Below are positions 32,185-63,981 of a stretch of DNA of 64,000 nucleotides, piece after piece. The notes beneath the pieces were generated by a model, which saw only the letters and a program-made list of their open reading frames with translations, did not search any database and was not told where the DNA came from. How positions within the stretch are numbered: the first letter of the stretch is position 1; each line of letters begins with the position of its first letter. This DNA comes from a virus, in IMG/VR virus record IMGVR_UViG_3300032287_004273, positions 1-64,000 of that record; one strand, given 5' to 3'. The position numbers and the translations under genes were made by a program.

Positions 32185-32725
32185 ACCCTTAAACGAACAA
32201 GAAATTGCAGTTTTATTCACAGAATATTTTTCTGAACTTAAAAAATATATTTTAAATTTTACTAGCTCAATTGATTTTGCTGAAGATTCGGCACAATTAA
32301 GTTTCATGAAACTTTGCAGAAATAAACCATCCTTTGAAACTCCTGAATCCGCAAAATGCTGGCTAAAAACAGTCGCTAAAAATTCACTTTTTACATTTCA
32401 TAAAAAAAATAAAAAGTACATCTTTATTGATACTCAAGAGTCCGCTTCGGAAATTGAAAATCTGCAGCCTCAAATTGATGTCGCGAGTGGATTTGAAAAT
32501 TTAGCTGATTTAGAAGAGGAAGTTCTTAATAGAACCACTTTAATTAGTTTAATGAACAAATTAACTAAAAAACAAAAAGAAGTTTTGCAACTCAGATACT
32601 TTGAAAATCTCACTTACGAACAAATAGCGCAAAAAACAAAAAATAAAGTTACAAATGTTGGTTTCTTGATTAACGAAGGAAAAAGGAATTTGAAAAAATT
32701 TTGGAACAATTACGCAAAAGCTTAA
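32174..32725 (+). CDS. ECF-type RNA polymerase sigma factor
   Basis: Region 2 AEDSAQLSF...WLKTVAKN; region 4 LTKKQKEVLQLRYFENLTYEQIA. Confidence 0.85.
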   Translation: MKTKPLNEQEIAVLFTEYFSELKKYILNFTSSIDFAEDSAQLSFMKLCRNKPSFETPESAKCWLKTVAKNSLFTFHKKNKKYIFIDTQESASEIENLQPQIDVASGFENLADLEEEVLNRTTLISLMNKLTKKQKEVLQLRYFENLTYEQIAQKTKNKVTNVGFLINEGKRNLKKFWNNYAKA

Positions 32726-48841: not shown

Positions 48842-49212
48842 TTATATGCGAAAGTTATTTCGTTTTTATTGTCTTGATTGTGACAACGCATGGCTAGAAA
48901 TCCTCAATGCAGATGAGATGCATTCAAGGTGCGAATACTGTAATAGTTTACAAACAGCAGAAGTGATAGATTAGGGGTAAAAAATCAAATTACAATCGCG
49001 GCTTAATGTAATTTATAATGAATTTTTATTCCAATTCCTCATTTGCTCTCTGTAGTTTGTAATGGAATATAGTAGTTATGGTCATTTATTGTAATTAGCC
49101 TAGTATATTACTGACTAGGCTCCAACAGAAGCGGAATGAAATTCAATAATCGAATCATTGTCGTATTGTGACAGTCGATTACTAACTAGGTAAAAATTGC
49201 CTAGTCGTTATA

Positions 49213-49716
49213 TTAGAAACGATAGGTTAATAGGAATAGGGCAATCCATAACCAAATAACATCGTCAGACCAAACGCTATAGAATATCGCGTGCGCCATG
49301 CGTTCAGCTTTGCTTGGTTCATACGATATCTCCACAGATGCGGGGAACTCCCAGACAGCATCTGGAGAAGGAAATACAGTAGAAGAATAGGTTATTTGTG
49401 CTGACTCACTATCACGTACAGCATCAAGAAGAGTAGAATTATCATCATATTTTTGGTTGCTATTGTCACCAATAACATTGGTGTCACCATCACTATCAAC
49501 ATCAGAAGAAGTATCAGATCCATCGATACTCATGATAAAAGCAGAAGGGGAAATAACGTAAGAATCATTAACATTAGCAATAGATGAACAAGAAGAAAGA
49601 GAAGATGAGTTAGATAATATAGAAGAAGAGTTAGAAGATAGATTACAAATACGCTTGTTTAACTCTCCCATCAATTTTGTTAGTTTATCTTTATCATTGG
49701 GAGTTAATCTACTCAT
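49213..49716 (-). CDS. Ser/Asp-rich protein with hydrophobic C-terminus
   Basis: 167-aa ORF; GTGTAA 8 nt upstream of ATG; no competing plus-strand ORF. Confidence 0.55.
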   Translation of the reverse strand: MSRLTPNDKDKLTKLMGELNKRICNLSSNSSSILSNSSSLSSCSSIANVNDSYVISPSAFIMSIDGSDTSSDVDSDGDTNVIGDNSNQKYDDNSTLLDAVRDSESAQITYSSTVFPSPDAVWEFPASVEISYEPSKAERMAHAIFYSVWSDDVIWLWIALFLLTYRF

Positions 49717-49818: not shown

Positions 49819-50050
49819 ACTAGGCAAAATTTGCCTAGTAACTCAAAAAAAACTCAAAAAATTTCATGACCTCGGCCAAATAAAGAGGTAGGCAATTTTT
49901 GCCTAGTACGTAAAAAAGCAAAAAATTTCATACAGCTCGCCAAATAAGCGCCCCTCCCAACTAGGCAAAATTTGCCTAGTAGATAAAAAGCAAAAAATTA
50001 CCAGCAACCAAGCAAATAAATACCAGGGCAGCTAGGCAATTTTTGCCTAC
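49819..50050. repeat. Four TAGGCA-N5-TGCCTA palindromes at about 71-bp period
   Basis: Copies near 49821, 49889, 49962, 50033, each preceded by CAAATAA and A-tracts; related copy at 49187. Confidence 0.9.
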
Positions 50051-50274
50051 CATTTAGTTATCGCCACCAATATGGTTAGTCACACAATTTCTTTTGTTTC
50101 TATGCTATTATATAGTAACACAAATCTAAACGTGTTTCGGGCAATCAAAGCAAATCAAATCTTATATCAGACAATCAAACAAAAACAAAAACAATTTGGT
50201 GATTTAATTTTTTTTGATTTAAATGCGGCCAGGGGCTTGACAACTCCATTTCTTTCTGATTTAATCTCTCCCAT

Positions 50275-50574
50275 ATGAATACCCAATCCTATGCTCAAAC
50301 CGTAAACGAAACTGCAGCAACCAAGCGTGGACGTGGTCGCCCCGCAGGTTCGAACAGTTTTGCAAACGTACAAATCAAACAGTTGCTTACGCTTCTGTCT
50401 GAAGATGCAGTTGTTCCTGTCTCACGTATCTGGTTGCGTGATACATTTGGTGCGATTGCAGAACCCGCACCTGTCATCATCAACACAGCTAACAATACTG
50501 TAGTAGAAAATCAAACAGAAGAAAAAATTCAGTTCCACATCGAAAAATTTGAGGACGCGAATTGTCCTTTTTAA
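50275..50574 (+). CDS. AT-hook-containing putative DNA-binding protein
   Basis: KRGRGRP motif; TTGACA-N17-TTTAAT promoter. Confidence 0.65.
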   Translation: MNTQSYAQTVNETAATKRGRGRPAGSNSFANVQIKQLLTLLSEDAVVPVSRIWLRDTFGAIAEPAPVIINTANNTVVENQTEEKIQFHIEKFEDANCPF

Positions 50575-50610
50575 TTGACATTTAAATTCCACCCCTATAT
50601 ATTTGCTCAC

Positions 50611-51534
50611 ATGTTTGACAACCTCATTGGACAATCCGAAATCAAAGATCAACTAGGCTTCTACTCGAAAGCCTTCCAAAAGACTGGCACTGTACCATTT
50701 ATACTTCTGAATGGTGCTAAAGGTCTGGGCAAGACTGAGTTCCTCAAGGCGTTCAGCAAGACCATCACCAATAGTGATGGCAAGCCGCGCCCTATGCTGG
50801 AACTCAACTCCAGCACCATCAAGAACAATCAAATGTTCTTTGAGCAGATCTTTATGCCCATCGTGCAGGGAAACGAAGTAACTCTTTTCTTCGATGAGTG
50901 TCATGCACTCCCTAACGATCTGGTGATGGCATTCCTGTCCATCCTCAATACAGAACGTACACCTTACAAGGAGTTCAACTGGAGAGAGTATACCTTTACT
51001 TTTGATTTCACTAAGATCTCCATGATCTTTGCAACTACCGAGTTAGATAAACTATTTCCTCCTCTTAAGGATCGGCTGACTGTTCTTGATTTCAAACCAT
51101 ATAATCAAAATGAGTTAGCCGCAATCATCAAGGGTCGCTTGCCAGATGTAGAGTTTGAAGATGGATTGGTTGAGGAGATTGCCACCACCACCAGAGGTAA
51201 TGCACGTGATGCTGTAAAGCGTGCAAAGCAAATCGAATTGTACTGCGAGACCAACAATTCTAATTTGTTTCTTAAGGATGAGTGGAATGATCTTCGTAAA
51301 GTGCTTGGCATCAAACCTTTGGGGTTATCTAATACAGAGGTGCAAGTGCTTGAGATTCTTAACGCTAGAGGGCCATCCACCTTACAAACTATCGCAGCAG
51401 TGACTGGCATGAGTCGTACTGCAATCCAGAAGGATGCTGAACTGTATCTCCTACAGCGTGGACTCATGAAGATCAATGGTGTTCGCGAGCTTACCAGATT
51501 AGGTGCAGACCTAATCAAACAAATGTCAGAGTAG
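50611..51534 (+). CDS. ruvB: RuvB-like Holliday-junction branch-migration AAA+ ATPase
   Basis: LIGQ, GAKGLGKT, LFFDECHAL, FATT..PLKDR, RGNAR, LGL, E.YL...GL...R; ATG 7 nt after TTGACA-N17-TATATT. Confidence 0.75.
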   Translation: MFDNLIGQSEIKDQLGFYSKAFQKTGTVPFILLNGAKGLGKTEFLKAFSKTITNSDGKPRPMLELNSSTIKNNQMFFEQIFMPIVQGNEVTLFFDECHALPNDLVMAFLSILNTERTPYKEFNWREYTFTFDFTKISMIFATTELDKLFPPLKDRLTVLDFKPYNQNELAAIIKGRLPDVEFEDGLVEEIATTTRGNARDAVKRAKQIELYCETNNSNLFLKDEWNDLRKVLGIKPLGLSNTEVQVLEILNARGPSTLQTIAAVTGMSRTAIQKDAELYLLQRGLMKINGVRELTRLGADLIKQMSE

Positions 51535-51549
51535 AGAGTAGTCAAACAG

Positions 51550-51581
51550 CCCCCCTTCGAGTGAAGGGGGGTAACTCTTTT
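51550..51581 (+). terminator. Probable terminator hairpin
   Basis: CCCCCCTTC-GAGT-GAAGGGGGG after ruvB-like stop; weak T tail. Confidence 0.6.
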
Positions 51582-51845
51582 ATGGCCAAACCTCAATATA
51601 TCTTTAGACACTTCAGCATAAGGAAGTCAAGAACTATTTTGTTTCATTGCTTGTATAATCCGAAGACATTAAGAATCACAGCTATGAGTGCATTCAACTT
51701 TGACAGTGGAGTGGGGGAAGAATGCGACTACAGCAAGTTCACCGACGAAGAGTTGAACTACACGCTCGCGTGGTTAGAACTCATGCTCGAAACAAAGCTA
51801 TGGGAAGAGCAAGATGAGTTAGAGAAGGGTAAGGAAGAAGAATAG
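51582..51845 (+). CDS. Hypothetical protein
   Basis: Last plus-strand ORF before the strand switch. Confidence 0.5.
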   Translation: MAKPQYIFRHFSIRKSRTILFHCLYNPKTLRITAMSAFNFDSGVGEECDYSKFTDEELNYTLAWLELMLETKLWEEQDELEKGKEEE

Positions 51846-52028
51846 TCAAGAGTAAAAATTAACAAAAATTATTTCAAATAAGACGAAATAAGTAGGCAAA
51901 AACTGCCAGGGGGAGCCCTGGTCACAAAAGACTACACCCCACCCTTTCGGGTGAGGTGTTTTTTATTGGGGGGAAATTTATTTACTTTTTATTTTTGGTT
52001 GCGAGTGCGAAGACAACTAGTAGAACAA

Positions 52029-52616
52029 TTAAGATTTGCATTTGCTGGGGGCATATGGTTCTCCTGTTTCTAGGTTGATGAGGACAACGTCGTCGATGTG
52101 ACCTCCGTCTTTTACGTTCTTAGCATAGACATCGATCATAAGACTTGGTGTTATATGTCTTGCGTATACATAGATCTTGCCACTCGCAACGTTTCTGATT
52201 GCCCACTTGGCACCTTTTGGTACGCAGAGCCACTTGCTACTGCTATAGCATCTCTCTACTGGTATTCCCAGCTTCCTCATCCAAGACTTCCAAGTAGGCC
52301 CATGTCCCCAACCCTTGTTGACTTCCCAATCTAAAGCGTGTGCCCATTCGTGTAGAATAGTTTCTTTTGCTTTTTGTAAGAAGTTCGGGCTGTTCTTGTT
52401 TATGTGTATTATGTGGGTGGAAAGCTCGATTCGTTTTGTCTTTCCATTATTAGATCTCCAAGCCCTGCCCATTACAGTCCTCAGTCTTTTGTTCCATTTG
52501 ATTTCCCACCCTTCTAGGATGGGATACTGGAGCTTGATCTGAGCAGAGATTTCTTTGAACAATGTATTTACTTCGGCAATCATATTAGTCATCGTCTCTA
52601 AATTATTCTTCGTCAA
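52029..52616 (-). CDS. SprT-like zinc metalloprotease
   Basis: WNKRLR..MG, ETILHEWAHA, GHGPTWK. Confidence 0.85.
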   Translation of the reverse strand: MTKNNLETMTNMIAEVNTLFKEISAQIKLQYPILEGWEIKWNKRLRTVMGRAWRSNNGKTKRIELSTHIIHINKNSPNFLQKAKETILHEWAHALDWEVNKGWGHGPTWKSWMRKLGIPVERCYSSSKWLCVPKGAKWAIRNVASGKIYVYARHITPSLMIDVYAKNVKDGGHIDDVVLINLETGEPYAPSKCKS

Positions 52617-52809
52617 ATTCTTTTTCTCCTAGTGGTTCAGAGTCAATCGAAAAGAAAACTTCGTCTTTGTAAAGATAGTCTCCCTCACCACTAGCAATGT
52701 GAATGCCAGTTACATTGTGAAAGTTATCATATACTTCCACGATTACATGGGAGTCAAGTTGATCGGCAGTCATGCGACCTAAGTCTTTTATTAGTTGTCT
52801 GTATGTCAT
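52603..52809 (-). CDS. Hypothetical protein
   Basis: MTYRQLI..L..MT..QLD. Confidence 0.6.
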   Translation of the reverse strand: MTYRQLIKDLGRMTADQLDSHVIVEVYDNFHNVTGIHIASGEGDYLYKDEVFFSIDSEPLGEKEFDEE

Positions 52810-52828
52810 ATTTTTTAGCAATTTAAAG

Positions 52829-52905
52829 TGGCGTACCCAGCAGGGTTCGAACCTGCGACCAACGGATTAGAAATCCGTTGCTCTATCCAACTGAGCTATG
52901 GGTAC
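52829..52905 (-). tRNA. tRNA-Arg(TCT)
   Basis: GTACCCA/TGGGTAC acceptor; ACGGA-TTTCTAA-TCCGT; CCA. Confidence 0.93.
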
Positions 52906-53253
52906 TTAAAGACAAGGGTGGAAAGCAAGATCTACATCCTTGCGGTGATATTCTTCAGATAGAATGCGCTTTGTCAAGACAATTTCCACCTTGCCAAATG
53001 GATAAACATATATCTCACCATAAGTGCCAGCGCCCATATCGAAATCTGGATAATGCTCCTGTAACAAATGTTCAATTTCATCTTGATAGATTGGAGCAAC
53101 TTCTTTACTGGAAACGAGTTTGTCCCCAAGCGCAAAGTACACGCAGGAATCAAACCAATGAGTACAGGAATCCTCAGAAGTCCAGTGATAGATTGCGTAC
53201 TTTAGATCACGACTCTTTAGAACCTCAACAAGATCAAGCAATGTCTTTTCCAT
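52906..53253 (-). CDS. Hypothetical protein
   Basis: ATG after TTGCCT-N16-TATGAT. Confidence 0.65.
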   Translation of the reverse strand: MEKTLLDLVEVLKSRDLKYAIYHWTSEDSCTHWFDSCVYFALGDKLVSSKEVAPIYQDEIEHLLQEHYPDFDMGAGTYGEIYVYPFGKVEIVLTKRILSEEYHRKDVDLAFHPCL

Positions 53254-53382
53254 ATGCGTCACATCATAAACAATCTTAGCGAGAAGGCAACATTTATTTC
53301 AAAAATATTTACGCACTTGTGCGTAATAACACTTGACAGGGAGCCAGGGCTACCCCTGGGGCGTAACCACCTCATTCTGAGG

Positions 53383-53468
53383 TGGTAGCTAGGGCGGGAC
53401 TCGAACCCGCACGCCCTACTGGGCAACAGATTTTAAGTCTGTTGTGTCTGCCATTTCACCACCTAGCC
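53383..53468 (-). tRNA. tRNA-Leu(TAA)
   Basis: ACAGA-CTTAAAA-TCTGT; long variable arm; GGTTCGAGTCC; CCA. Confidence 0.93.
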
Positions 53469-53483
53469 GAAAGAAAAAGAAAG

Positions 53484-53556
53484 TGGGGACGGAGGGATTT
53501 GAACCCCCAACCAAGCGATTATGAGTCGCCTGCTCTGACCATTGAGCTACATCCCC
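53484..53556 (-). tRNA. tRNA(CAT), probably Ile2 (lysidine-type)
   Basis: GGGGATG/CGTCCCC acceptor; arm GGCGA-CTCATAA-TCGCT is like bacterial tRNA-Ile2. Confidence 0.85.
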
Positions 53557-53562
53557 GAAAGC

Positions 53563-53949
53563 TTACAATTCAAAAGCGAGAATGTTATCTGATGGAAGAA
53601 AGTTCAACTCTGCCTCACCTTCATATAAGGAATATCCTAGCACAGTCAAAGCAAAGACGCAAGCATTATCGTAAGAAAAATCTCGAAAGGAATGGATCTC
53701 TACACCATCATCTTTGTCCACAATGTAGTAGTCTTTAATCTCATCAGATAAAGATTTAGGTTCTACACGAAAGCCCAAATGTGTAAGGGCTTGTTCTTCA
53801 GGTGTTTGCGGTGATTCTTTATCAATCATTACTTGTTCCTGAAAGGAAGTGTCATCTTCGATTAGTGTATACGGTTGGTGCATATTTATTTCTTTAACAT
53901 TAAGCATATTACGACGAGGGTTACGATTAGAGCATCCATAATTAGACAT
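53563..53949 (-). CDS. Hypothetical protein
   Basis: ORF coupled to the upstream gp88-like gene; start uncertain. Confidence 0.6.
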   Translation of the reverse strand: MSNYGCSNRNPRRNMLNVKEINMHQPYTLIEDDTSFQEQVMIDKESPQTPEEQALTHLGFRVEPKSLSDEIKDYYIVDKDDGVEIHSFRDFSYDNACVFALTVLGYSLYEGEAELNFLPSDNILAFEL

Positions 53950-54637
53950 GAATTACAAAGCCCGAATTATCTTTTTTTGCTGGCCCCTTGGCACGCAGTC
54001 CCACGATTGTATTCTTTGGATCAAGGAAGCGAAGATCGTTTTCATCTCCGTCAATGACTTTGAAACCTTCGTGTTCTGTTGGCAAGGGTTGATCTTTTTT
54101 AGTGGAGAAAACAAAGGCTGAATTGTTTCCTTTTGCTAAAGCTGCGAAAGCTTTAACTTGAGACACTTTAGTCTCTGCGCGTGAGAAAGTCAAGTGGTAA
54201 TTTGAAATTGTCAAGTCCAAACGATCAAACAATTTTGTGTAATCATAGAACTGCACACCAGAAAAATGCTGGAAAATGTTTTTGCCCTTGTGGATAATGT
54301 CTTCCCATCTGACATCGGAAGTTAAGTTGAGACGAAACACAGCTTGCAAACTTTTCTTTGCGGCTGATTTGATTCCTGTCTCAATTTCTTTGATTAAATT
54401 ATCCATGAACAAAGCTTGTTCCTCAAAGAAGCTTTTTGTTTTTTCGATTCGCTGTGGCTGAACCATGACACCCATGCCAGCCAAGTTAAGGCATGAATCT
54501 GTGCAACCTTTAGATCTGCCTTGGCAAACTTCATAACCGCTAATGTTAGCGGGTGCAAAGTGAATGCCAAAGGTTTCGTATCCGAAGGATCTGCCCTTGA
54601 GCGTTTTGTAATTAGCAACGGTGAGTAATTTTTGCAT
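53942..54637 (-). CDS. Phage Gp88-like protein
   Basis: C...C..SCL..AG, FRLN.TSD..WE, FYDYTK, NYHLTFS, DGD..DLRF.D, GL.AKG. Confidence 0.75.
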   Translation of the reverse strand: MQKLLTVANYKTLKGRSFGYETFGIHFAPANISGYEVCQGRSKGCTDSCLNLAGMGVMVQPQRIEKTKSFFEEQALFMDNLIKEIETGIKSAAKKSLQAVFRLNLTSDVRWEDIIHKGKNIFQHFSGVQFYDYTKLFDRLDLTISNYHLTFSRAETKVSQVKAFAALAKGNNSAFVFSTKKDQPLPTEHEGFKVIDGDENDLRFLDPKNTIVGLRAKGPAKKDNSGFVIHV

Positions 54638-54919
54638 GGGTGAAGAATATCATGAGCAAGGGGTGGTGCAACAATTATTTCGCAAAATATTTACGCCTTT
54701 AGGCGTAATAGTTCTTGACATCCCAGCCAGGGCTACCCCTGGCCCCCACCCGATGGGTGGGGGTCAGCTTCCCGATAGCGTTGGTTGTCAGTTAAACAAA
54801 CCAAAAAAAGCAAACCAACAATCTATTTGGAAGAGAAAGTAACTGGCCCCCACCCCACTGGGTGGGGGTCAGCTTCCCGATAGTTTAGCTCGCTGAGATC
54901 CCCTCAGAAAACGCGAGCA

Positions 54920-55207
54920 TCATCTATTTGGAAGAATGGAATTGTCCAAGATTCTGTCAAGGTAGAACATTCCGAAGTGTGGTTGCTCCACCTTACCGTT
55001 CTTTGCTACTATGTAGAGAGTGACAGCTTCAGGTGGGCAATGGTTAGTTCCACCTTTTGATCCTTTCTTTACGCCAGTACGAACAGTGTAGGTGTTTGTT
55101 TCACCTTTCTTGTTATGGTACTTGATCGAAAAGAACTTTCCGTTTGTTGTTGCGATAATGCGTTTGCCGATCATATGTGGTGCTGGTTCGAGTGTGTTAT
55201 TATTCAT
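54920..55207 (-). CDS. Hypothetical phage protein
   Basis: GKFFSI...K.G.....RTGVKK..KGG. Confidence 0.65.
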   Translation of the reverse strand: MNNNTLEPAPHMIGKRIIATTNGKFFSIKYHNKKGETNTYTVRTGVKKGSKGGTNHCPPEAVTLYIVAKNGKVEQPHFGMFYLDRILDNSILPNR

Positions 55208-55211
55208 ATAA

Positions 55212-55490
55212 TTATCGTGAAAGATCAACTTGATTGCCATCCTCATCTTCGTCGTCGAAGTCTTCGTCCTCGTCGTCCCAAACAACATCTGGTTCTGTGG
55301 TGTTCATTGCAATGGTAGCGAGCAGATGATCGTAGTCTCCGCTTTGCGCTTCTTTTAGAACCGCACGAACTTCTTCTTGTGACCAACCTTGGCGAAGCGC
55401 GTTGCTTCTCCATGTACCCATAATTGCAAATGCGTTGCCGTCGAGGCCGACCAGTTCCATCTTAACTTTCTTGGTTTTTGTGTTTTGCAT
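55212..55490 (-). CDS. Hypothetical phage protein with acidic tail
   Basis: LVGLDGNAFAIMG...SGDYDHLL; DDEDEDFDDEDED. Confidence 0.7.
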   Translation of the reverse strand: MQNTKTKKVKMELVGLDGNAFAIMGTWRSNALRQGWSQEEVRAVLKEAQSGDYDHLLATIAMNTTEPDVVWDDEDEDFDDEDEDGNQVDLSR

Positions 55491-55580
55491 ATCGCTTGTA
55501 TTGTTTTTTGCTTGGTTGTACGACTCGCAACATTCTGTTGCCCCATCGTAAAGTTTTTTGATAGGTTACCCCATCGACAA

Positions 55581-55823
55581 TCAGTTTTTGCTTTTTGGAG
55601 TCCATACTCTCAACATATCCTCATCCTTCATGATGTCAATCCCAAATCCCAATGTTTGGAAAGTTTTCTGCAAAGTGTATGCTTGCAACTCAAGAATCTT
55701 TTTCATCTCGTTTGATGTCATAGCTTCACCGACAGCTTCCTGCGTAGCCCTGTGGAATGCGTAAAGCATTTCACAAAACTGATTTACCAATGGGGTCAAC
55801 TCTTTGATGGCGTCTTTGTTCAT
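55581..55823 (-). CDS. Hypothetical protein
   Basis: Leaderless: TTGCGC-N16-TATGAT-N6-ATG. Confidence 0.7.
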   Translation of the reverse strand: MNKDAIKELTPLVNQFCEMLYAFHRATQEAVGEAMTSNEMKKILELQAYTLQKTFQTLGFGIDIMKDEDMLRVWTPKSKN

Positions 55824-55964
55824 GTGGGTATCATATACAGAGCAACCGAATGCGCAACATTTATTTCAAAAATATTTACGTCCTTGGACGTAATAGTTAT
55901 TGACAGCCCAGCCAGGGGTGGCCCTGGACCCCCGCCTTTCGGCGGGAGACCATTCGTATGGAAA

Positions 55965-56270
55965 TTAATGTGCGACTACTTCTGCTTCGTCGATTTCTAT
56001 GCAGAACTCTCCGCCGCCAAGGGAGAATTCAAACTTATTGCCTGTAAGGGAAACTTCTTGAGGAAGCCTGCGATCTGTTTTATGGTTAAGCAGAACGCTG
56101 TGATCCATCCCATCTTTCCACCTTTCGAGGTGAACATTGGTGGGAACGAAGTGAGTGATGTTATGCCAGAGGATCAATCTTTCTTTCTTTTTGATTGCTC
56201 TCTTGACTCGCTCAACGTGAGCGTGTTTGACTTTGATCGTGATGTTGGTGTTTCCAATGTTTGTTTGCAT
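55965..56270 (-). CDS. Hypothetical protein
   Basis: Leaderless: TTGCAC-N16-TATGCT-N6-ATG. Confidence 0.7.
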   Translation of the reverse strand: MQTNIGNTNITIKVKHAHVERVKRAIKKKERLILWHNITHFVPTNVHLERWKDGMDHSVLLNHKTDRRLPQEVSLTGNKFEFSLGGGEFCIEIDEAEVVAH

Positions 56271-56432
56271 GTGAGAAGCATAGCAAAAGCTCTCATGCGT
56301 GCAACAATTTTAATTAAAAAAAATTACGCACCTGTGCGCAATAGTTGTTGACAGAAAAGCCAGGGGTAGCCCTGGCCCCCCGCATAGCGGGGGGTGGGTT
56401 GGGAGCGGTGTTACCCGCTCCCCCCGAAGGGC

Positions 56433-57203
56433 TTACGCTTCAGCGCCTGCAAGCTCTTCAACGTCAATCAGTTGGGGCTCAATGATTGATGCGTGACCCG
56501 CAATCGAATCGAAGATTGATTGCATGACCATCGTGCGAGCGGGGAGCTTGGTCAGGTCGGAGCCTTTCAGGTTCTCCGTCACAGAGTTGTACAGGTTCCA
56601 CAAGGTGGGCGTGTTGAACTCAGGGTGACGGGGAGCCTTGAACTCTTGCGTGACGGCGAACACATCGCGAGCGGGAAGCGCCTTAGCTTCAGCGAGTTGA
56701 ACTGAAAGCTCGCACGCACGATCAAAACCGATTTCGGTGTTCTGATACCGATTGATTCGGGTTTCCATATCCGTCCAATGCGAGAGAAGGCGACCGATGC
56801 CCTCAGACAAAACGCGAGGAATGTCGCGAATGATGTTGACGGTGTGACGGCGAGCCAGCTTCACATCGCTGGAAAAGCACAGGTTCTCGCATACGATCAT
56901 GCGGTTGCCAATGCACATACTAGCAGCGAATGACTTGTCGTGCGCGTTACGCAATCCCAAGACGAGCTTGCGCGAATCGCTATTGATATCGGGGCCAGTG
57001 ATCTGGAACCCGCCGAAGTACCGTTGACCGAAACGGCCCAGAGCGTGCTTTTCTTCGGTGACGCTGTAGCCTGCGCGATCCAAAGCGGAAAGCGTTTCTT
57101 CCACAAGGAAGGAATGGCTGATTGGGGTGAAGCTGTCCGTGCCATCTGGGGTACGGACGGTTGCGAGTTCTTCACGGGAGACGAGGTTCTTTGCAATGAT
57201 CAT
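56433..57203 (-). CDS. DUF932-family protein
   Basis: P.SH, RYFG, GLRNAHDKS, VCENL.F, RRHT, TLWNLYN.VTE..K. Confidence 0.75.
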   Translation of the reverse strand: MIIAKNLVSREELATVRTPDGTDSFTPISHSFLVEETLSALDRAGYSVTEEKHALGRFGQRYFGGFQITGPDINSDSRKLVLGLRNAHDKSFAASMCIGNRMIVCENLCFSSDVKLARRHTVNIIRDIPRVLSEGIGRLLSHWTDMETRINRYQNTEIGFDRACELSVQLAEAKALPARDVFAVTQEFKAPRHPEFNTPTLWNLYNSVTENLKGSDLTKLPARTMVMQSIFDSIAGHASIIEPQLIDVEELAGAEA

Positions 57204-57424
57204 ATGTTTGATTAGGTTTAATGGTTAACTGACAGAAGAGAGTCTCTCACAGCTTGGGTTTTAGTGCAACGGATTTTTTTGATTTTGAGCATTTATTTTC
57301 ACCTCAGAAACCATGCCAAGCGCAAATATTTTTGCGCTTGAGCGTAATAGTCTTGACAGCCCCAGGCCAGGGGTAGCCCTGGACCCCGCCTTTCGGCGGG
57401 GTCAAGTGCCTGTGCGTGCCGCAC

Positions 57425-57643
57425 TTACGCCAGATGCGCGATCTTAGCCTCCACAAGGCGAAGGCGCTCGCGTGCTTCGCGCACATGCGCGAGAGCGAAG
57501 TCGGCCACGCCGTTAAGGAGTTCTATGTCGGCCTCTGTGGTGAGACGAGCGACGTTGATGTCGCGGACGCACTCGCGTAACACGCGAAGGCTCGCGGTCA
57601 TGAGTGCTGCGGAGGAGGCGGGTTGTGGTGTGTTTAGTGTCAT
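57425..57643 (-). CDS. Hypothetical protein, paralogue family A
   Basis: RECVRDIN..LT...LL..A.FA...EAR shared with 62042..62296. Confidence 0.65.
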   Translation of the reverse strand: MTLNTPQPASSAALMTASLRVLRECVRDINVARLTTEADIELLNGVADFALAHVREARERLRLVEAKIAHLA

Positions 57644-57644
57644 A

Positions 57645-57848
57645 TTAGGTGTAGCAGACAGGGTGGATATCATCCCTTAGTCCATTCCATTTTCTGTTCA
57701 TCATAATGGAATGGGTGTGCATAACTCTTTTGAGCCTTTGCTTGGATTCTGTCTTGACTTTCTTCAACTTGGAAAGTTCCATTTGCAGATAGGTAATCTC
57801 ATCAATGCTGAGACTTTTTGCGGCTTCAATGATTTGTTTTTTATTCAT
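57645..57848 (-). CDS. Hypothetical protein
   Basis: Packed minus-strand ORF. Confidence 0.55.
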   Translation of the reverse strand: MNKKQIIEAAKSLSIDEITYLQMELSKLKKVKTESKQRLKRVMHTHSIMMNRKWNGLRDDIHPVCYT

Positions 57849-57954
57849 ATTAATTTAATGCTTTGATAATGCTTGCGCTGGAGCCCCCTCTGCGAGAAGG
57901 AGAAACGCAGAGGGAGCTTGCGCATAGCGCAACAGGGGAAACAACAACCCTGTC

Positions 57955-58290
57955 CTACCGAAAGACTCTTGTCAAATGATTATTGACACCGTTCTTGAAA
58001 AACTCATAGTCAACGCAGTCAACCGCATCCAACTTGTACCCACCGATATTCCATTCAAACAAAACGTCTGGGCTGGATGGTACGCGCTTCCATGCGTAGA
58101 TGGTGGCGACTGTATCATTGGGGAATCTTAAGCGCCATTCGATGTTAACTTTTTCGCTTTCATCGATTGGATTATTATGCTTGTCAGGCGCACCGAATAC
58201 AGCAACCAATTGGTCGTATGTGCATGAGATGTAACCTTTGAGCGAGGTTCCGTTGATGAGTGGCGTTCTTCTAACTGCTGTAGTTGTCAT
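57955..58290 (-). CDS. Hypothetical phage protein
   Basis: GTSLKGYI..YD.LV..FG.P, KV..EW, WNIGG; leaderless promoter. Confidence 0.7.
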   Translation of the reverse strand: MTTTAVRRTPLINGTSLKGYISCTYDQLVAVFGAPDKHNNPIDESEKVNIEWRLRFPNDTVATIYAWKRVPSSPDVLFEWNIGGYKLDAVDCVDYEFFKNGVNNHLTRVFR

Positions 58291-58398
58291 GGATAGAAAG
58301 ATAGCACAGGAAAGAGTGCGTGCAACTTATTTTTCAAAAATAATTACGCCCTTGGGCGTAATAGTGCTTGACAGATCCCCAGGGCTACCCCTGGGCGT

Positions 58399-58473
58399 TG
58401 GTGGACAGGATGAGACTCGAACTCATAACCAACGCCTTAAAAGGGCGCTGCTCTACCATTGAGCTACCTGTCC
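58399..58473 (-). tRNA. tRNA-Lys(TTT)
   Basis: GGACAGG/CCTGTCC acceptor; GCGCC-CTTTTAA-GGCGT; CCA. Confidence 0.93.
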
Positions 58474-58541
58474 CTTTGTGCCAGAGCCTCCCCCGCACTC
58501 GCGGGGGAGGATGGATGACACAACACACCTAACCACAGAAA

Positions 58542-58847
58542 TTATCTTGCTGCTTCAAAGCAGTGAGCCGCATGGAGTTCCAGATGTTTGCGGATGTCTT
58601 TAATTTTTTGCTTGACCTCATCTCTTTGAGAGACTGCCATGTTCCAACTCTCATCGCCCTTTGGGTAGTAGTCTCGCTTGTGAAACTCAACCGCAAAAAA
58701 CTTTTCAGAGAATTGTTCTAGCGCACGAAGCGCATCGAAGTACTGTCCACCTAGTGATTTGCCATCGTTGCCATTCATGTGGATGAATGGAAAACAAACA
58801 GAAGGATTATCAAGCTGGACTTGTGATTGTGCTGTTTCGGAGATCAT
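58542..58847 (-). CDS. Hypothetical protein
   Basis: IHMNG...FH.RDYY motif. Confidence 0.65.
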   Translation of the reverse strand: MISETAQSQVQLDNPSVCFPFIHMNGNDGKSLGGQYFDALRALEQFSEKFFAVEFHKRDYYPKGDESWNMAVSQRDEVKQKIKDIRKHLELHAAHCFEAAR

Positions 58848-58999
58848 TGTTGCAAGTATGTTTGGATTTTTTCTTTTAGTTCAATGAGGAAGTTTTCTTC
58901 CACGTTCAATTCGTATGAGAGCTTATCTCTTAAGTCTGCATCCGTCAAGCAATGTTTGCAGATTTCGAGGGCTTTGGTGATGTCTTCTGGTGTGAGCAT
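58844..58999 (-). CDS. Small hypothetical protein (51 aa)
   Basis: Not in ORF track; fills the gap with an ATGA overlap. Confidence 0.5.
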   Translation of the reverse strand: MLTPEDITKALEICKHCLTDADLRDKLSYELNVEENFLIELKEKIQTYLQQ

Positions 59000-59003
59000 G
59001 ATA

Positions 59004-59330
59004 TTAGTCCCAACGTTGTTCAATAAAATCTTTGACCCTCATTTCCTGTAAGACAAGAAATTTAAATTTTTGTTTTAGTTTTGAAGTGAGTTCAATTAGA
59101 CCATCAGCATATATCTTCGCATCACACTTGTCAAGTTTAAAACGAAGATCATGACCGTCTTGACGAGAAAACAAAGAAAACGTATCTCGTATTGTTTCAA
59201 CATTATCATCGTAATGATAGACTTCTGATCCAAATTCGCTTTGAAGTACGAATGCCCAAGATTCACAAAGGATGTCTAACAGGTCTGATGGACTGATTGG
59301 TTTTGATTCTGCTTTCAATGGGTTGTTCAT
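59004..59330 (-). CDS. Hypothetical protein
   Basis: Leaderless: TTGCGC-N16-TAGAGT-N7-ATG. Confidence 0.7.
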   Translation of the reverse strand: MNNPLKAESKPISPSDLLDILCESWAFVLQSEFGSEVYHYDDNVETIRDTFSLFSRQDGHDLRFKLDKCDAKIYADGLIELTSKLKQKFKFLVLQEMRVKDFIEQRWD

Positions 59331-59466
59331 GTTTAGAACTCTATCATGGGTTTTGATTCGCGCAACATTTATTTATCAAAAAATTACGCACTTAGTGCGT
59401 AATAGTTCTTGACAGTCGAGCCAGGGGTAGCCCTGGCCCCAACCCTTTCAGGTTGAGGCGGTTATA

Positions 59467-59700
59467 CTACTCGACCTCCTCTTCTTCCTCTTCTTCCTCT
59501 TCGTCGAGCCCACCGAAGAGCGAGTCCCACTCTTCGGCGGTAATGCCCGACTTAATGAACTCCCGCTCGTCGGGAGTTAAGTTAGGGAACGCATCTTGCA
59601 GCAGAGCGCCTGCTGCATAGAGGTCGAGCTGCGTTTGCGTGATGGGAAGATCAAGCGTGTTGACTTCCCCCGATACCCACGATGTGCGTGTGATGTTCAT
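59467..59700 (-). CDS. Hypothetical phage protein with poly-Glu tail
   Basis: LLQDAFPNL..DEREFIKSGIT.EEW. Confidence 0.7.
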   Translation of the reverse strand: MNITRTSWVSGEVNTLDLPITQTQLDLYAAGALLQDAFPNLTPDEREFIKSGITAEEWDSLFGGLDEEEEEEEEEVE

Positions 59701-59707
59701 GTTTTTA

Positions 59708-59890
59708 TTATTTGTTGCTGATTTGACGGACAGAAGAAACTGGTGGCCATTCGGGCGATTCGCCGTTAAGAAGGGCGATTTGATATTCGCGCTCTTCGAT
59801 CATGCACTCGATTGCGGTTTGCAACTGGCGCAAAGAGTCGAGGTCGCTGAAGTTTTGCTTAATCAATTCGATCAATGGGTTCGTTCTCAT
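59708..59890 (-). CDS. Hypothetical protein, paralogue family B
   Basis: DSL...AIECMIEE shared with 61101..61343. Confidence 0.65.
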   Translation of the reverse strand: MRTNPLIELIKQNFSDLDSLRQLQTAIECMIEEREYQIALLNGESPEWPPVSSVRQISNK

Positions 59891-60031
59891 GGAAGAATCA
59901 TCTCACAATTCTGCTTTTGCACAACAAAAAAAGAGCAAAAAAATTTACGCTGCAAGCGTAATAGTTGTTGACAGCCAGCCCAGGGGTAGCCCTGGCCCCC
60001 AACCCATTCGGGTTGAGGGCTTTAGCTCTGT

Positions 60032-60292
60032 CTACTTGGCCAAGTCAAAGAATGGGCCACTGAACTGGATTTGCCGTTCGTGCGCAAGTGCTTGCGCCCG
60101 TTCACGTTCCTCCTGATCAGCCACCTGCTGATTGAGGATATGCGCCTCTTGCAACATTGCGCTGCACTCATGCGCAAGCATGAAAAGCAATGTGTGTTGC
60201 TCGCAAGTGAGCGCGAGTGGGTCGAGCCCCGCAATCATTTTGCGGGACTCGATGAGGACTGCGTTTTGCATAAGTTGAAGTGCGTCTTGCAT
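60032..60292 (-). CDS. Hypothetical protein, paralogue family A
   Basis: ATG at 60292; AVLI..R and RERAQALAHERQ shared with 62042..62296. Confidence 0.65.
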   Translation of the reverse strand: MQDALQLMQNAVLIESRKMIAGLDPLALTCEQHTLLFMLAHECSAMLQEAHILNQQVADQEERERAQALAHERQIQFSGPFFDLAK

Positions 60293-60300
60293 AGGATGTA

Positions 60301-60513
60301 TTATTCGCGTTCTTGGAGTTGTTTGATTCTGCCTGCAATATGTTCTTTGGCCTCTGGCACAAAAGTTGCCATACCTATCAAAAAACCTTCGAGGTGGCCA
60401 ACGATGCACGCATCGACAAGTTTCTCGCCATGCCTTTTCGCGATGTCCGCCTTGGTAGCGGCCATGAAGGTTTGCATAATCTGAACTGCGTCTGTGTAGT
60501 TGTTTCTTTCCAT
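60301..60513 (-). CDS. Hypothetical protein
   Basis: Leaderless: TGC-TATTGT-N6-ATG at 60513. Confidence 0.65.
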   Translation of the reverse strand: MERNNYTDAVQIMQTFMAATKADIAKRHGEKLVDACIVGHLEGFLIGMATFVPEAKEHIAGRIKQLQERE

Positions 60514-60676
60514 GCCCAAACAATAGCATAAAAAGAAAGGGCTACAATACTCTTTTTTCATGCCAAGCGTGAAAAAAAGTTCATAAAAATTTTCACTTAA
60601 TAGCGTAATAGTTCTTGACACCCAGCCCAGGGGTAGCCCTGGCTCCCAACCCTTTCGGGTTGAGGGGTTTACGGGT

Positions 60677-60934
60677 TTAGTTGTATGCCTTGAGCGGCCC
60701 TTGGCCCTCGCACTCAATGCGATGGCGCTCAGTCAAGCGCTCAACCGTTTCAATCGTGTGCCGCAAAGAGGCTTGGAACTTTGGGTCGCCTTCAAAATCA
60801 AACTGCAAGTCGCGCAATGCGTGCTCAAGCATCATGGCCTGAATCGTGGTGCGCGTCGAGAGCTTGTTGCGTGGGTTCACGCTAGAGTATGCGTGAATTT
60901 TGCTGATCAGATCAGAGACTTTGATGTTTTCCAT
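60677..60934 (-). CDS. Hypothetical protein
   Basis: Leaderless: TTGCGC-N16-TATTGT-N6-ATG. Confidence 0.65.
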   Translation of the reverse strand: MENIKVSDLISKIHAYSSVNPRNKLSTRTTIQAMMLEHALRDLQFDFEGDPKFQASLRHTIETVERLTERHRIECEGQGPLKAYN

Positions 60935-61100
60935 GCTCAGACAATAGCAGAAAACAAAATGTGCGCAACACTCTTTTTTCATGCCAAACTTCAAAAAAAG
61001 TTTACAAAAATTTTCACCCTATTTCATAATAGTTCTTGACGCCCAGTCCAGGGGTAGCCCTGGACCCCAACCCTTTCGGGTTGAGGTGTTTGCGCTTATG

Positions 61101-61343
61101 CTATTCTTCCATCATGCACTCGATGGCCGCTTTAATCTTTGCTAGTGAATCTGGGTCATTATATCCTTGACGGATTTGCTGAATGATTCCTTCGCATGAT
61201 TGCGTATTCTCGACGAACGTGCATAACTCCTTGAAGTCTGGGTCGCTTGGAAGCGACAGCGCCCAATTCAGACTCTGCTGAATTGCGCGAAGCGCGTTTA
61301 GATCCCTGTCTTCGTAAGTGTCGGTGGTAGGATAGTCGTACAT
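61101..61343 (-). CDS. Hypothetical protein, paralogue family B
   Basis: Ends DSLAKIKAAIECMMEE. Confidence 0.65.
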   Translation of the reverse strand: MYDYPTTDTYEDRDLNALRAIQQSLNWALSLPSDPDFKELCTFVENTQSCEGIIQQIRQGYNDPDSLAKIKAAIECMMEE

Positions 61344-61476
61344 AACTGAGAGAATCATATACAAGAAAGTGTGCGGTTCAACATAAAAATTTTGCTTTTG
61401 ATGCTTAATAGTTCTTGACAGCGAGTCCAGGGGTAGCCCTGGCGGCTTGTCAAGTATTTTCTTTTGTTTTTCTCAC

Positions 61477-61504
61477 AAAAAAAGCCGCCCGAAGGCGGCT
61501 TTTT
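61477..61504. terminator. Bidirectional terminator
   Basis: A-tract, GCCGCC-CGAA-GGCGGC, T-tract; identical hairpin at 62006-62021. Confidence 0.8.
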
Positions 61505-61519
61505 GTGCTTGACGCGATT

Positions 61520-61837
61520 TTAGAAATCGCCCCCTTCGCACTCGTTCATCGACTCCCAATGGGAGTCGAGGAAACTGTCCTCCCCACCGCCGTAGTCCTC
61601 ATCCGTCCCCCACCCAGCGGACGCGAGCGCATCCGCATCCGCCTCGCCATCCGTCATGCCGTCCCCTTCGTCTTCGCCCAGATCCTGCGTGCAATCGTCC
61701 CCCTCCGCCTCGATCTGCTCCGAAGGATCGTAGTACTCCCCAATCGAGGGGCAGCACCCGCAGCAAGGCGCGTCCTCGCAGGGGAACTGCGCGTGCGTGT
61801 TTTCGTCGTCTGAACCTGAATTAGATGATGTAACCAT
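61520..61837 (-). CDS. Extremely acidic Cys-cluster protein
   Basis: 105 aa, about 31 D/E, no K/R; CEDAPCCGCC and ALASAGWGTDEDYG motifs. Confidence 0.7.
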   Translation of the reverse strand: MVTSSNSGSDDENTHAQFPCEDAPCCGCCPSIGEYYDPSEQIEAEGDDCTQDLGEDEGDGMTDGEADADALASAGWGTDEDYGGGEDSFLDSHWESMNECEGGDF

Positions 61838-61996
61838 GCGCCAAACATAACACATAAAAGCAAAAGGTCAAAAACTATTTGCGTGCCAAGCCTGAATTTA
61901 AATTCATAAAAATTTCTCACAAATAGCATAATAGTTGTTGACGCCCGACCCAGGGGTAGCCCTGGATCTTGTCAAGAGTTTTTTTTATTTTAGTGC

Positions 61997-62025
61997 AAAA
62001 AAAAAGCCGCCCGAAGGCGGCTTTT
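61997..62025. terminator. Bidirectional terminator (second copy)
   Basis: A-tract, GCCGCC-CGAA-GGCGGC, T-tract. Confidence 0.8.
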
Positions 62026-62041
62026 ATGGCGGCTTTTATGC

Positions 62042-62296
62042 TTAGAGCGCCATTTGCCTTTCGTGCGCGAACGCTTGCGCCCATTCGCGAGCGTCCTCCT
62101 CCGCTTCCCCGAATTCGACGGAGGCGACATCCGCCTCCTGCGCGAAACGCGCCTCCTGCGCGTTCGCGCAGGCAAAGGACGCGATTTGATGGAGGAGCGC
62201 GATGTGCTCCTCCGTCAGGGATGCGCAATTGAGGTCGCGCACGCAGGCGCGAACGTGAATGAGAACCGCTGTGAGATTGGACGATGTATTAACCAT
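62042..62296 (-). CDS. Hypothetical protein, paralogue family A
   Basis: ATG at 62296, 6 nt after TACTGT. Confidence 0.65.
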   Translation of the reverse strand: MVNTSSNLTAVLIHVRACVRDLNCASLTEEHIALLHQIASFACANAQEARFAQEADVASVEFGEAEEDAREWAQAFAHERQMAL

Positions 62297-62427
62297 GCGG
62301 ATACAGTACAAAAAGAATGCTGCGATTGGAAGGATTATTTGCAAAAAATTTCTCACTCTATGCACAATAGTTGTTGACAGGGTGGCCAGGGGTAGCCCTG
62401 GGGGCTGTCAAGCTTTTTTTGCTTTTT

Positions 62428-62637
62428 TTATGCTTGCACAACTTGCATGTTCTGTGGGCGCATTGAGTACTCCTTAGAGTACTCCTCATTCGTGAGTATC
62501 AGCGCGAAGCTGATATCGAAGCGACCACTTGCAAACAACTCAGCGCGAACGCTTTTTGCTTCGTCGCGAGTCTCGCAACGGATAGTTTCATGCCCGAAGT
62601 TTCCCGCCTTGTTTAAGCTAACGTATAATGTGAACAT
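62428..62637 (-). CDS. Hypothetical protein
   Basis: Leaderless: TTGCAA-N17-TATAAT-N6-ATG. Confidence 0.7.
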   Translation of the reverse strand: MFTLYVSLNKAGNFGHETIRCETRDEAKSVRAELFASGRFDISFALILTNEEYSKEYSMRPQNMQVVQA

Positions 62638-62904
62638 GCGATGATTATAGGGTAACAAATGTGCGATTGCAAAAACTATTTTCGTGCCAAGTGTATTTTT
62701 AATTCTTAAAAAATTTCCTACAAATAGCTCAATAGTGCTTGACAGGGTGGCCAGGGGTCCCCCTGGAGTTTTTTGCCTAGTGAGTTTTTGCCGCCTCCTA
62801 GAGGTAGGCACTTCTTGCCTAGCGCCAGGGATCATGCACTTTCTGCATCATGCACTGGTCGCATGGCCATGCATGGGCCGCATCCCATGCATGGCGTGCA
62901 TGGC

Positions 62905-63012
62905 CTACTTCTTGCTCGTGAAGTATTCTGCGCATTCTGCAACCAGCGCAACGATGGTTATGAATGTCATGGGGAATAGGACTAATGCAGATGCTGCAAT
63001 GATGTCTTTCAT
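62905..63012 (-). CDS. Small membrane peptide (35 aa)
   Basis: MKDIIAASALVLFPMTFITIVALVAECAEYFTSKK; not in ORF track. Confidence 0.4.
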   Translation of the reverse strand: MKDIIAASALVLFPMTFITIVALVAECAEYFTSKK

Positions 63013-63015
63013 GGG

Positions 63016-63041
63016 GTGTGTGTGTGTGTGTGTGTGTGTGT
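63016..63041. repeat. (GT)13 microsatellite
   Basis: Directly visible. Confidence 0.95.
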
Positions 63042-63077
63042 AGGTTGGGGGGCTCGCGCCCCCCTTGTGATTCTTGC

Positions 63078-63329
63078 TTAGGCGTTTGCGTATTCTCTAA
63101 CTAACTTAAGACCATTCACTTCCAACGTGCGGATTTTGGCCGCACTAGTGAAGCTGCGCGTGCCCTTGGCCGTTGAGAGGATGTATTGCGTACCAGCACC
63201 GCACGCCTTGGACTCAACTAAGGTGCCTTCGAGCGTCTTGAATTGTCCGTTATCGTTTACGCGATCGTTTGACGATGCGTGGTAGGTGACTTTGATGTTC
63301 GATCCGTTTGCGATTGTCAGGTTTGCCAT
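63078..63329 (-). CDS. Hypothetical protein
   Basis: ATG at 63329 after a repeated promoter block. Confidence 0.65.
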   Translation of the reverse strand: MANLTIANGSNIKVTYHASSNDRVNDNGQFKTLEGTLVESKACGAGTQYILSTAKGTRSFTSAAKIRTLEVNGLKLVREYANA

Positions 63330-63382
63330 ATGTGAGAAGTATAGGGAATTGAGGTTGAGAAACAAGATTTATTTGTGTTTTT

Positions 63383-63595
63383 TTAGTCTTTTTTCAAGGA
63401 GTTGATCGTGTTTTCGACGTATCGCTTGACATCATTATCCCAATTGATCATCAACCCTAGCACTGAAGTTAAAAAGGCTTCGGTTGAGACTTGGATCAAT
63501 GCTTCGTCGCCATTCACGCGCTTGCACACGCTTTGTTTGTATGTTGCGACAAGGGTTTCGGCGATTTGCTGTGAGGCTTCGTAAGTTGTAATCAT
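63383..63595 (-). CDS. Hypothetical protein
   Basis: Leaderless: TATACT-N6-ATG. Confidence 0.65.
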   Translation of the reverse strand: MITTYEASQQIAETLVATYKQSVCKRVNGDEALIQVSTEAFLTSVLGLMINWDNDVKRYVENTINSLKKD

Positions 63596-63765
63596 GTGAG
63601 AAGTATAGGGAGTTGAGAGAGGGAAACAAGGTTTATTTGTGTTTTTATTTCACTTTTTTCTGCAAGCGCAAAGCACTAGGAGAGAGAGAGTTAGGATGCT
63701 CATCTGCAAGTAGGTGAATGAGAGAAGGTTAAAGAGGAGGGATCGAACCTCCTCAGGTTGAGCGC

Positions 63766-63981
63766 TTAGTGAATGTAATCATGAGCGGCTTCGCCGCATT
63801 CGTCTGAGGGAATACTTTCAAGCTCCTCAGGTGTGAGCGCAACGTATTCATCACCAACCTTTTTCAAGGCTTTAATGATGAAAGCATCACAAAAGTCTGG
63901 GTAGTCACACATATCAATTCCATCCATCTCAATGTCGAAGCATTCGACTGCTTCGCCGTTAACCGTTAATTTCATATCCAT
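63766..63981 (-). CDS. Acidic hypothetical phage protein
   Basis: IEMDGID..DYPDFCDAFI motif. Confidence 0.7.
   Translation of the reverse strand: MDMKLTVNGEAVECFDIEMDGIDMCDYPDFCDAFIIKALKKVGDEYVALTPEELESIPSDECGEAAHDYIH

Follow-up and report, generated by a model that had tools for sequence, protein, structure and literature searches.

What do the inverted ends of a phage gene array mark: a segment that moves, or a boundary that stays in place? The question is raised by a stretch of 64,000 nucleotides (hereafter the window), which corresponds to the first 64 kb of the 79,358-bp IMG/VR record IMGVR_UViG_3300032287_004273 (G000). This record comes from an uncultured freshwater tailed phage of ~32% G+C. 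From 52.0 to 62.8 kb, it carries an array of small genes and tRNAs punctuated by copies of a 16-bp palindrome, CCAGGG-N4-CCCTGG (the core). A first-pass annotation of the window described the array as closed by specialised 29-bp terminal inverted repeats, delimiting a ~10.9-kb unit that could invert, excise or be looped by a protein. The reading we favour, with a probability of about 0.6, is that these ends are boundary modules which stay in place and to which a phage protein binds (as an insulator, a co-regulator or a loop anchor), rather than the termini of a segment that moves or inverts.

The repeats themselves are readily recovered. Positions 51893-51921 and the reverse complement of 62751-62779 are identical at 25 of 29 positions without gaps, and a repeat search lengthens the pair to 40-nt arms (51886-51925 and 62747-62786) with 80% complementarity. 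The core is present 15 times in the record, for 0.01 copies expected from shuffled sequences, and all copies lie within 51906-62766; as annotated, no full element is found beyond the terminal pair in the window, and there is no core in positions 64001-79358 either. Centres of the thirteen internal cores are GTAG or CTAC (GTGG in one case), and those of the terminal cores are GGAG and GTCC (that is, GGAC on the other strand). The first and last cores are also the only ones to carry the flank TAGGCAAAA / TAGGCAAAAA, so that the GGA(G/C) centre and the TAGGCA flank are indeed limited to them. When each of the 225 core pairs was compared in inverted register over its 13-nt flanks, the terminal pair matched at 10 of 13 positions, a value attained by one further core pair owing to the TTGACA...TGTCAA extension of internal units.

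The supposed 29-bp repeat is a fusion of two palindrome families, namely the outermost 16-bp core and, outside it, a 17-bp operator-like site of the form GGCA-N5-TGCC (Table 1). The two ends are in inverted orientation because this operator is on the outer side in both cases, whether of the first core or of the last. On the left, the 17-mer takes its final CCAG from the core. On the right, the outer half-site TGCCTA is intact in G000, and in G001, G002 and four metagenome contigs a TAGGCA-N5-TGCC(C)AG site runs into the core; the inner side of the right end is an ordinary array unit (N6-TGTCAA, promoter, ATG at 62637). The TAGGCA half-site is thus special to the ends among cores, as first proposed, but it belongs to a second palindrome family with four full copies 2 kb to the left.

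This second family has six members in G000, for 0.25 expected from shuffled sequences. Four of them form a cluster; of the other two, one (51895) belongs to the left array end and one (62807) lies a little outside the right end. The pattern is absent from the rest of the record. In the related record G001 the count is seven, again at these places, with one site overlapping the right terminal core. Each palindrome of the cluster is preceded by CAAATAA and followed by A-tracts, and the cluster lies between divergent genes, ahead of an operon that stops at the left composite end. It looks like an operator cluster or an origin-like element.

Conservation of the composite was assessed on 17 ends (10 left and 7 right), drawn from G000, G001, G002 and 12 true matches in a scan of metagenome contigs, which also returned ~25 chance matches without a full core. 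At all 17 ends the composite is unchanged save for 1-3 positions, and adjoining spacers vary in the same contigs. The special GGAG/GGAC centre is retained at both ends in every case (17/17). All left ends come after the AAATAAG repeats that lie behind the operon, and ahead of the same bidirectional terminator; all right ends follow a TAGGCA..GGCAAAAA block and precede N6-TGTCAA and a promoter. The hybrid motif was therefore never found at an unrelated locus, and in every relative that has it, across several independent studies, it marks both boundaries of the core-bearing array. To this extent the ends are defined, as the first-pass annotation had it. Its ~10.9-kb unit bounds the core array correctly, but raised G+C content (over about 50.2-64.2 kb) and promoter-fronted small genes on the minus strand (to ~63,981) run past the repeats.

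The proposal that the segment inverts or excises fared less well. None of the 17 ends is recombinant or empty: no end joins the left outer flank to the right inner flank, no locus has both outer flanks joined, and neither relocated copies nor empty sites were found in IMG/VR or the lake metagenomes. No relative with the segment inverted or absent was seen among the same ends; relatives are colinear, with each cassette on the same strand. The sequences outside the left (...GACGAAATAAG) and right (GTGAGTTTTTG...) ends show no target-site duplication, as the annotation suspected. Neither Resolvase (PF00239) nor Phage_integrase (PF00589) domains were detected in G000 and five related records, one of which is 112 kb long and 87% complete. 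Terminal inverted repeats of the kind expected of a transposon are present, but Pfam scans of ~27 open reading frames of the array (from lists of at least 40-45 aa) gave only SprT-like, GP88 and DUF932 families and no transposase, DDE families not having been searched individually record-wide. We also considered insertion of the array into a single TAGGCA-N5-TGCCTA palindrome, with each end inheriting one half of a split target, and rejected it, as each end has its own near-complete 17-mer. Among the joints listed for contigs from four lake metagenomes, none links 51.9 kb to 62.8 kb or switches strand; these were not used as evidence, since contigs cannot show absence.

How might fixed boundaries work? 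A DNA-binding protein of the phage, probably a product of the adjacent operon, would sit on the cluster and on both array boundaries. Occupancy of the boundaries would cap or insulate the array and might stop transcriptional read-through in or out of it. The same protein may compete with, or exclude, whatever reads the cores, and it may bridge the cluster and both ends by looping. The looping suggested in the first-pass annotation is a reasonable proposal because both ends carry the palindrome of the four-copy cluster, which is otherwise absent from the record. A bolder version, which we put forward only tentatively, is that the array is a discrete chromosomal domain, in which one phage protein on both composite borders and on the origin-like cluster 2 kb away would, by looping or capping, set the limits of a highly recombining block of early genes with higher G+C content and insulate its transcription or recombination from the conserved part of the genome.

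Several observations weigh against the boundary-module reading. No protein is predicted to bind either palindrome, and the operon proteins other than the RuvB homologue match no recognisable DNA-binding family. In G000 itself, the inner operator half at the right end is degenerate (it is intact in relatives). The related records G003, G004 and G009 have the same arrays, with boundary cores by AAATAA repeats, and no GGCA-type site there; the composite is thus lineage-specific and not essential to the array. Part of its conservation could reflect shared ancestry, as its carriers are close relatives. Finally, the records compared, G000 included, are all incomplete (CheckV 25-87%), and a recombinase could be encoded elsewhere in these genomes. 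In G004, cluster sites resemble CGGGCA-N5-TGCCGA and the array boundary lacks that site, which gives no co-variation support for the pairing of operator and array end.

Table 1. Features of the cassette array and its surroundings (positions in the window).
Feature	Positions	Strand	Description
Near-copy palindrome	49187..49203		TAGGTA-AAAAT-TGCCTA, at the 3' end of gene 49213-49716
Four-copy cluster	49821..50049		Perfect TAGGCA-N5-TGCCTA at 49821, 49889, 49962 and 50033, 68-73 bp apart; likewise in G001
Operon	50072..51845	+	AT-hook-like protein, RuvB homologue and small open reading frames; ends at the left composite end
Left composite end	51893..51921		17-mer TAGGCA-AAAAC-TGCCAG (51893-51909) overlapping core CCAGGG-GGAG-CCCTGG (51906-51921); upstream, CAAATAAG-N3-AAATAAG
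Bidirectional terminator between operon and array	51934..51965		Strong GC hairpin, followed by a T-run on either strand
Cassette array	52029..62637	-	~20 small genes and 4 tRNAs; SprT-like, GP88 and DUF932 products, the rest without family
Thirteen internal cores	53344..62401		53344, 54727, 55912, 56360, 57367, 58379, 59421, 59980, 60627, 61048, 61427, 61950, 62386
Right composite end	62751..62779		Core CCAGGG-GTCC-CCCTGG (62751-62766), then AGTTTTTTGCCTA
Sites just outside the right end	62784..62821		Half-site GTTTTTGCCG (62784-62793); full palindrome TAGGCA-CTTCT-TGCCTA (62805-62821)
Non-coding stretch outside the right end	62822..63046		CCATGCATGG-like repeats; length differs among lake contigs
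Three further small genes	63078..63981	-	Same -10-to-ATG geometry, no cores

Four other explanations of the composite ends have to be weighed. The first, a simpler partial alternative, is that a core and its T-run form a weak outward intrinsic terminator: the core hairpin followed by TTTTT(T)GCC would halt transcription leaving the array in either direction, and the likeness to TAGGCA would be secondary. A simple scan does call both ends terminator-like on the exiting strand (minus strand 51921-51906 followed by CAGTTTTTGC; plus strand 62751-62766 followed by AGTTTTTTGC), and A/T runs are longer at the terminal sites (5-6) than at the cluster palindromes. However, the stem is just 6 bp long, the fold of the G000 right end is no better than those of shuffled sequences (z = +0.23), and in relatives the T-run begins 3-6 nt past the stem, which is poor for intrinsic termination. 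A strong terminator is already present 13 nt upstream of the left end on that strand, and the GCCTA conserved after the T-run would be left unexplained. We consider this reading unlikely.

Alternatively, the composite may have no function of its own. Operators would merely happen to flank the array, recombination among units would have trimmed the intervening space up to the outermost cores, and conservation would reflect recent common ancestry. In line with this idea are a 1-nt shift in the register of the overlap at left ends compared with right ends, the absence of the composite from G003, G004 and G009, and the close relatedness of its carriers (75-97% DNA identity). It does not account for a composite that stays invariant next to variable spacers in the same contigs, for a special centre kept at both ends, or for an operator that is near-complete at both ends with an inner half-site built from core bases. 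We find it somewhat harder to accept than weak termination, and improbable.

A third possibility is that the motif acts at the RNA level, with UAGGCAAAAA-N3-CCAGGGGGAGCCCUGG serving as a common signal in 3' untranslated regions for an RNA-binding protein or a nuclease. The perfect 17-bp palindromes of the cluster, which lie in a divergent intergenic gap, look rather like DNA sites; there is no Rfam match, and the core arms show no covariation (63/64 exact), which makes a purely structural RNA role unlikely. These points outweigh, in our view, the facts that both ends read identically on transcripts heading to the array (that of the operon, coming from the left, and those of the 63.9-63.0 kb genes, coming from the right), that the core lies upstream of a terminator hairpin in every unit and hence in the predicted transcribed 3' untranslated region, that the core-then-terminator order is also found at the left end on the plus strand, and that tRNAs can replace the GC hairpin directly before a core. 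The RNA reading is quite improbable. Last, palindromes of 6-4-6 or 7-2-7 layout with an asymmetric centre resemble the sites of serine recombinases. An invertible or excisable segment, with the GGAG-centred cores as inverted crossover sites whose non-palindromic central GA/TC would bar recombination with the TA-centred internal cores, would fit this resemblance, the inverted geometry with its special centres and the GTAG versus CTAC flips among internal cores, but we deem it highly improbable given the colinear relatives, the 17 non-recombinant ends, the lack of Resolvase and Phage_integrase in six records, and a CTCC-centred core (GGAG on the other strand) located inside the G003 array without TAGGCA.

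Between the two ends, at 52.0-62.8 kb, the minus strand encodes every gene and all four tRNAs. On that strand, each intergenic unit starts at the stop codon that closes the preceding gene, or where a tRNA ends, and runs through a variable GC hairpin, the core, N6-TGTCAA, a TTACGCnn..nnGCGTAA hairpin with its T-run, an A/T-rich stretch, a -35 element (TTGCNC), 16-17 nt, a -10 element (TATnnT) and 6-7 nt to the ATG. These predicted promoters were identified by consensus match in 12 of the 14 units. Fold z-scores of these predicted stem-loops (the core CCAGGGG..CCCCTGG, the GC hairpin and the TTACGC..GCGTAA hairpin with its T-run) range from -2.0 to -7.1. The TTACGC hairpins (53309-53326, 54691-54708, 55876-55893, 58343-58362 and 59383-59403) have compensated pairs (AC/GT, CT/AG, CC/GG) followed by T-runs and are likely to be real unit terminators; they share with the TAGGCA palindromes a 6-N5-6 geometry, with one position different. 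Of 64 core copies from five records, 63 have exact arms, although neighbouring hairpins covary, which suggests that the core is read sequence-specifically. A check for avoidance of self-complementary core centres gave no significant result (only 9 distinct centre types). Relative to the other internal cores, those at 53344, 54727 and 58379 have the 4-nt centre in the opposite orientation (GTAG versus CTAC, as read on the minus strand), with flank orientation unchanged. One of these cores adjoins tRNA-Lys, one is behind a hairpin just after tRNA-Leu and one is behind a GC hairpin. G004 shows a comparable flip (GTGC versus GCAC).

A Shine-Dalgarno-like motif precedes none of the 22 array genes, versus 11 of the 102 other genes of the record. 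Together with a -10 element 6-7 nt from the ATG, this predicts leaderless mRNAs; it points to leaderless early transcripts and to a host that would not rely on Shine-Dalgarno sequences. Two other promoter types were considered and set aside. A sigma54-like promoter (TGGCAC..TTGCA in long-class units) has a GG-GC spacing of 18 instead of 12, and for T7-like (CACTAT) or N4-like hairpin promoters, the conserved ACTATTACGC turned out to belong to the terminator hairpin, as its base. The open reading frames scanned, large parts of the record lying outside that scan, included neither a single-subunit nor an N4-type RNA polymerase. In an Rfam search (E<=0.1), only the four tRNAs scored meaningfully, and units matched no family.

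Comparison of relatives shows extensive cassette turnover. Breakpoints of the indels, replacements and reorderings distinguishing G000 from G001-G004 and from lake contigs fall at units. For example, cassette 60674-60921 is missing from G001 (75-97% DNA identity) through recombination between two 174-nt units; 56394-57622 (the DUF932 cassette) and 61443-62113 are absent from G001, where other cassettes have been replaced; and in G004 common cassettes are reordered with their strand unchanged. Contigs from other lakes carry the joints 57359>60622 and 61044>61424, each a few bases from cores. In lake run X5, tRNA-Lys (58395-58476) is exactly absent, position 58394 (the core edge) being joined to 58477 with 5 other letters between, suggesting that tRNAs act as cassettes too. 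In a lake contig, G001 and G002, gene 62428-62637 has a different promoter in front of it, joined on at the ATG of the gene. One gene located inside the array in G000 is outside it in G001 and G002. Distant relatives, whose RuvB homologue is 41-57% identical, likewise have arrays downstream of the same operon (L070:4570-8815, L072 and L071:5600-10700). Their stem-loop families are different (GTAACTCGTTGA..TCAACGAGTTAC in L070 and L072, GGGGGGGCAGCCCCCCC in L071), and promoters in L071 have a non-leaderless start and the same strand as the operon. CAAATAA repeats flag the cluster and the 3' boundary of the operon in all lineages.

The adjacent operon encodes a 99-aa protein (50275-50574) with an RGRGRP AT-hook-like motif, for which an ESM Atlas look-up returned unnamed viral clusters only, and a RuvB homologue (50611-51534; PDB 3pfi, 1e-16) with a C-terminal winged helix; these two are the candidates for a protein that would bind the operator family. 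On the other side of the array, a run of CCATGCATGG-like short palindromes at 62830-62915 is kept in G001 and G002, and lake runs X2 and X6 have a 21-nt insertion within it, at 62860-62874. Elsewhere, the record (55% complete as estimated by CheckV) encodes a lambda-J-like tail protein, minor tail proteins, a thymidylate synthase, a sigma-factor-like protein and seven tRNAs. The sigma-like product is a 196-aa protein (32135-32725) matching phage RNA polymerase sigma factors (phrog_1740, 5e-16), through which the phage may redirect the host RNA polymerase for its later genes. The record starts with a tandem 54-bp repeat (1-110) and ends with another repeated motif (79260-79358), which probably accounts for the assembly stopping there.

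Near-identical pieces of this phage were found in lake and freshwater metagenomes from 13 studies. Among cultured phages, megablast of 50-64 kb gave tRNA-sized matches only and tblastn of the major capsid candidate gave no match; megablast of 50-64 kb against plasmids gave none either. G+C content is 42-60% over about 50.2-64.2 kb, versus ~32% in the rest of the phage. The raised stretch spans the RuvB-homologue operon, the array and the three genes beyond the right repeat, and the same step is observed in every relative examined (G001, G003, G004 and G009, also L003, L026, L027 and L067). Possible sources are a gene pool shared with phages of higher G+C content, or GC-biased conversion in a region of hot recombination.

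Among described systems, the array is closest in organisation to the promoter-early stem-loops (PeSLs) of T4-type phages, a class of mobile regulatory cassettes (Arbiol et al. 2010, PMC2839356; Comeau et al. 2014, PMC4122927); the definition used here is taken from the former. Like PeSLs, the array has repeated intergenic units in which a sigma70-like promoter, with A/T-rich sequence upstream, is combined with a stem-loop or terminator with G-run and C-run; these units front small genes of no assigned function in a plastic region, and insertions, deletions, replacements and reorderings break within them. PeSLs can also give rise to mini-circles when adjacent motifs recombine; some joints in the lake contigs lead back to an earlier position, as either such circles or reordering would produce. 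Unlike the T4-type myoviruses that host PeSLs, this phage is not T4-like (a lambda-J-like tail protein, no T4-like matches and a capsid without cultured match). The PeSL motif finishes, on its 3' side, with a Shine-Dalgarno sequence and a start codon, whereas the array lacks the former and appears to be leaderless. Its unit is also longer (~100 nt) and includes an invariant 16-bp palindrome, and its operator-overlapped end copies have not been described for PeSLs. On these grounds, we read 52.0-62.8 kb as a plastic block of small, apparently early-type genes and tRNAs, a leaderless, non-T4 variant of PeSL-type cassettes, and its operator-capped borders are a new detail of such an array.

Other likenesses are more limited. 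Integron arrays also consist of one-gene cassettes in a row, with imperfect palindromes between them and a content that varies among relatives. Integrons, however, combine an IntI integrase and attI with cassettes that lack promoters and end in attC. Here, no IntI-type integrase (Phage_integrase domain) was found, every cassette comes with a predicted promoter and terminator, the palindrome does not vary from its 16-mer form and is not an attC with R and L boxes, and breakpoints are not confined to it (as seen for gene 62428-62637). Hin, Gin and Cin segments and shufflons share with the array a multi-kb segment between short inverted repeats with an asymmetric centre; the array differs from them in showing no second orientation, no recombinase gene and no identified enhancer, and inversion would switch nothing obvious, as its genes have their own predicted promoters. 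In phage lambda (OL/OR with CI) and in the iteron plasmids R6K and P1 (handcuffing or looping), distant operator sets are bridged by one regulator. The locus resembles these in having a 17-bp two-fold site present as a cluster and as single copies kilobases away, the arrangement in which, in those systems, one protein bridges sites by looping. It departs from them in that cluster sites are ~70 bp apart and not adjacent, and in the overlap of its distant sites with another palindrome.

Phages store their genes for host takeover and anti-defence, and trade them, in plastic blocks of small genes with promoters in front. The conserved borders of this block, drawn from a palindrome family shared with an origin-like cluster, provide a concrete candidate for a boundary or looping element that bears on how recombination and strong early transcription are kept out of essential modules. 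Natural variants, with or without the composite and with different stem-loop families, offer a comparison set. The locus also serves as a caution that inverted repeats ending a cassette array need not signal a transposon or an invertible switch. If the bolder version, that of a discrete chromosomal domain, is true, these phages would possess a boundary element dedicated to a hyperplastic region; none has so far been described for phage cassette arrays.

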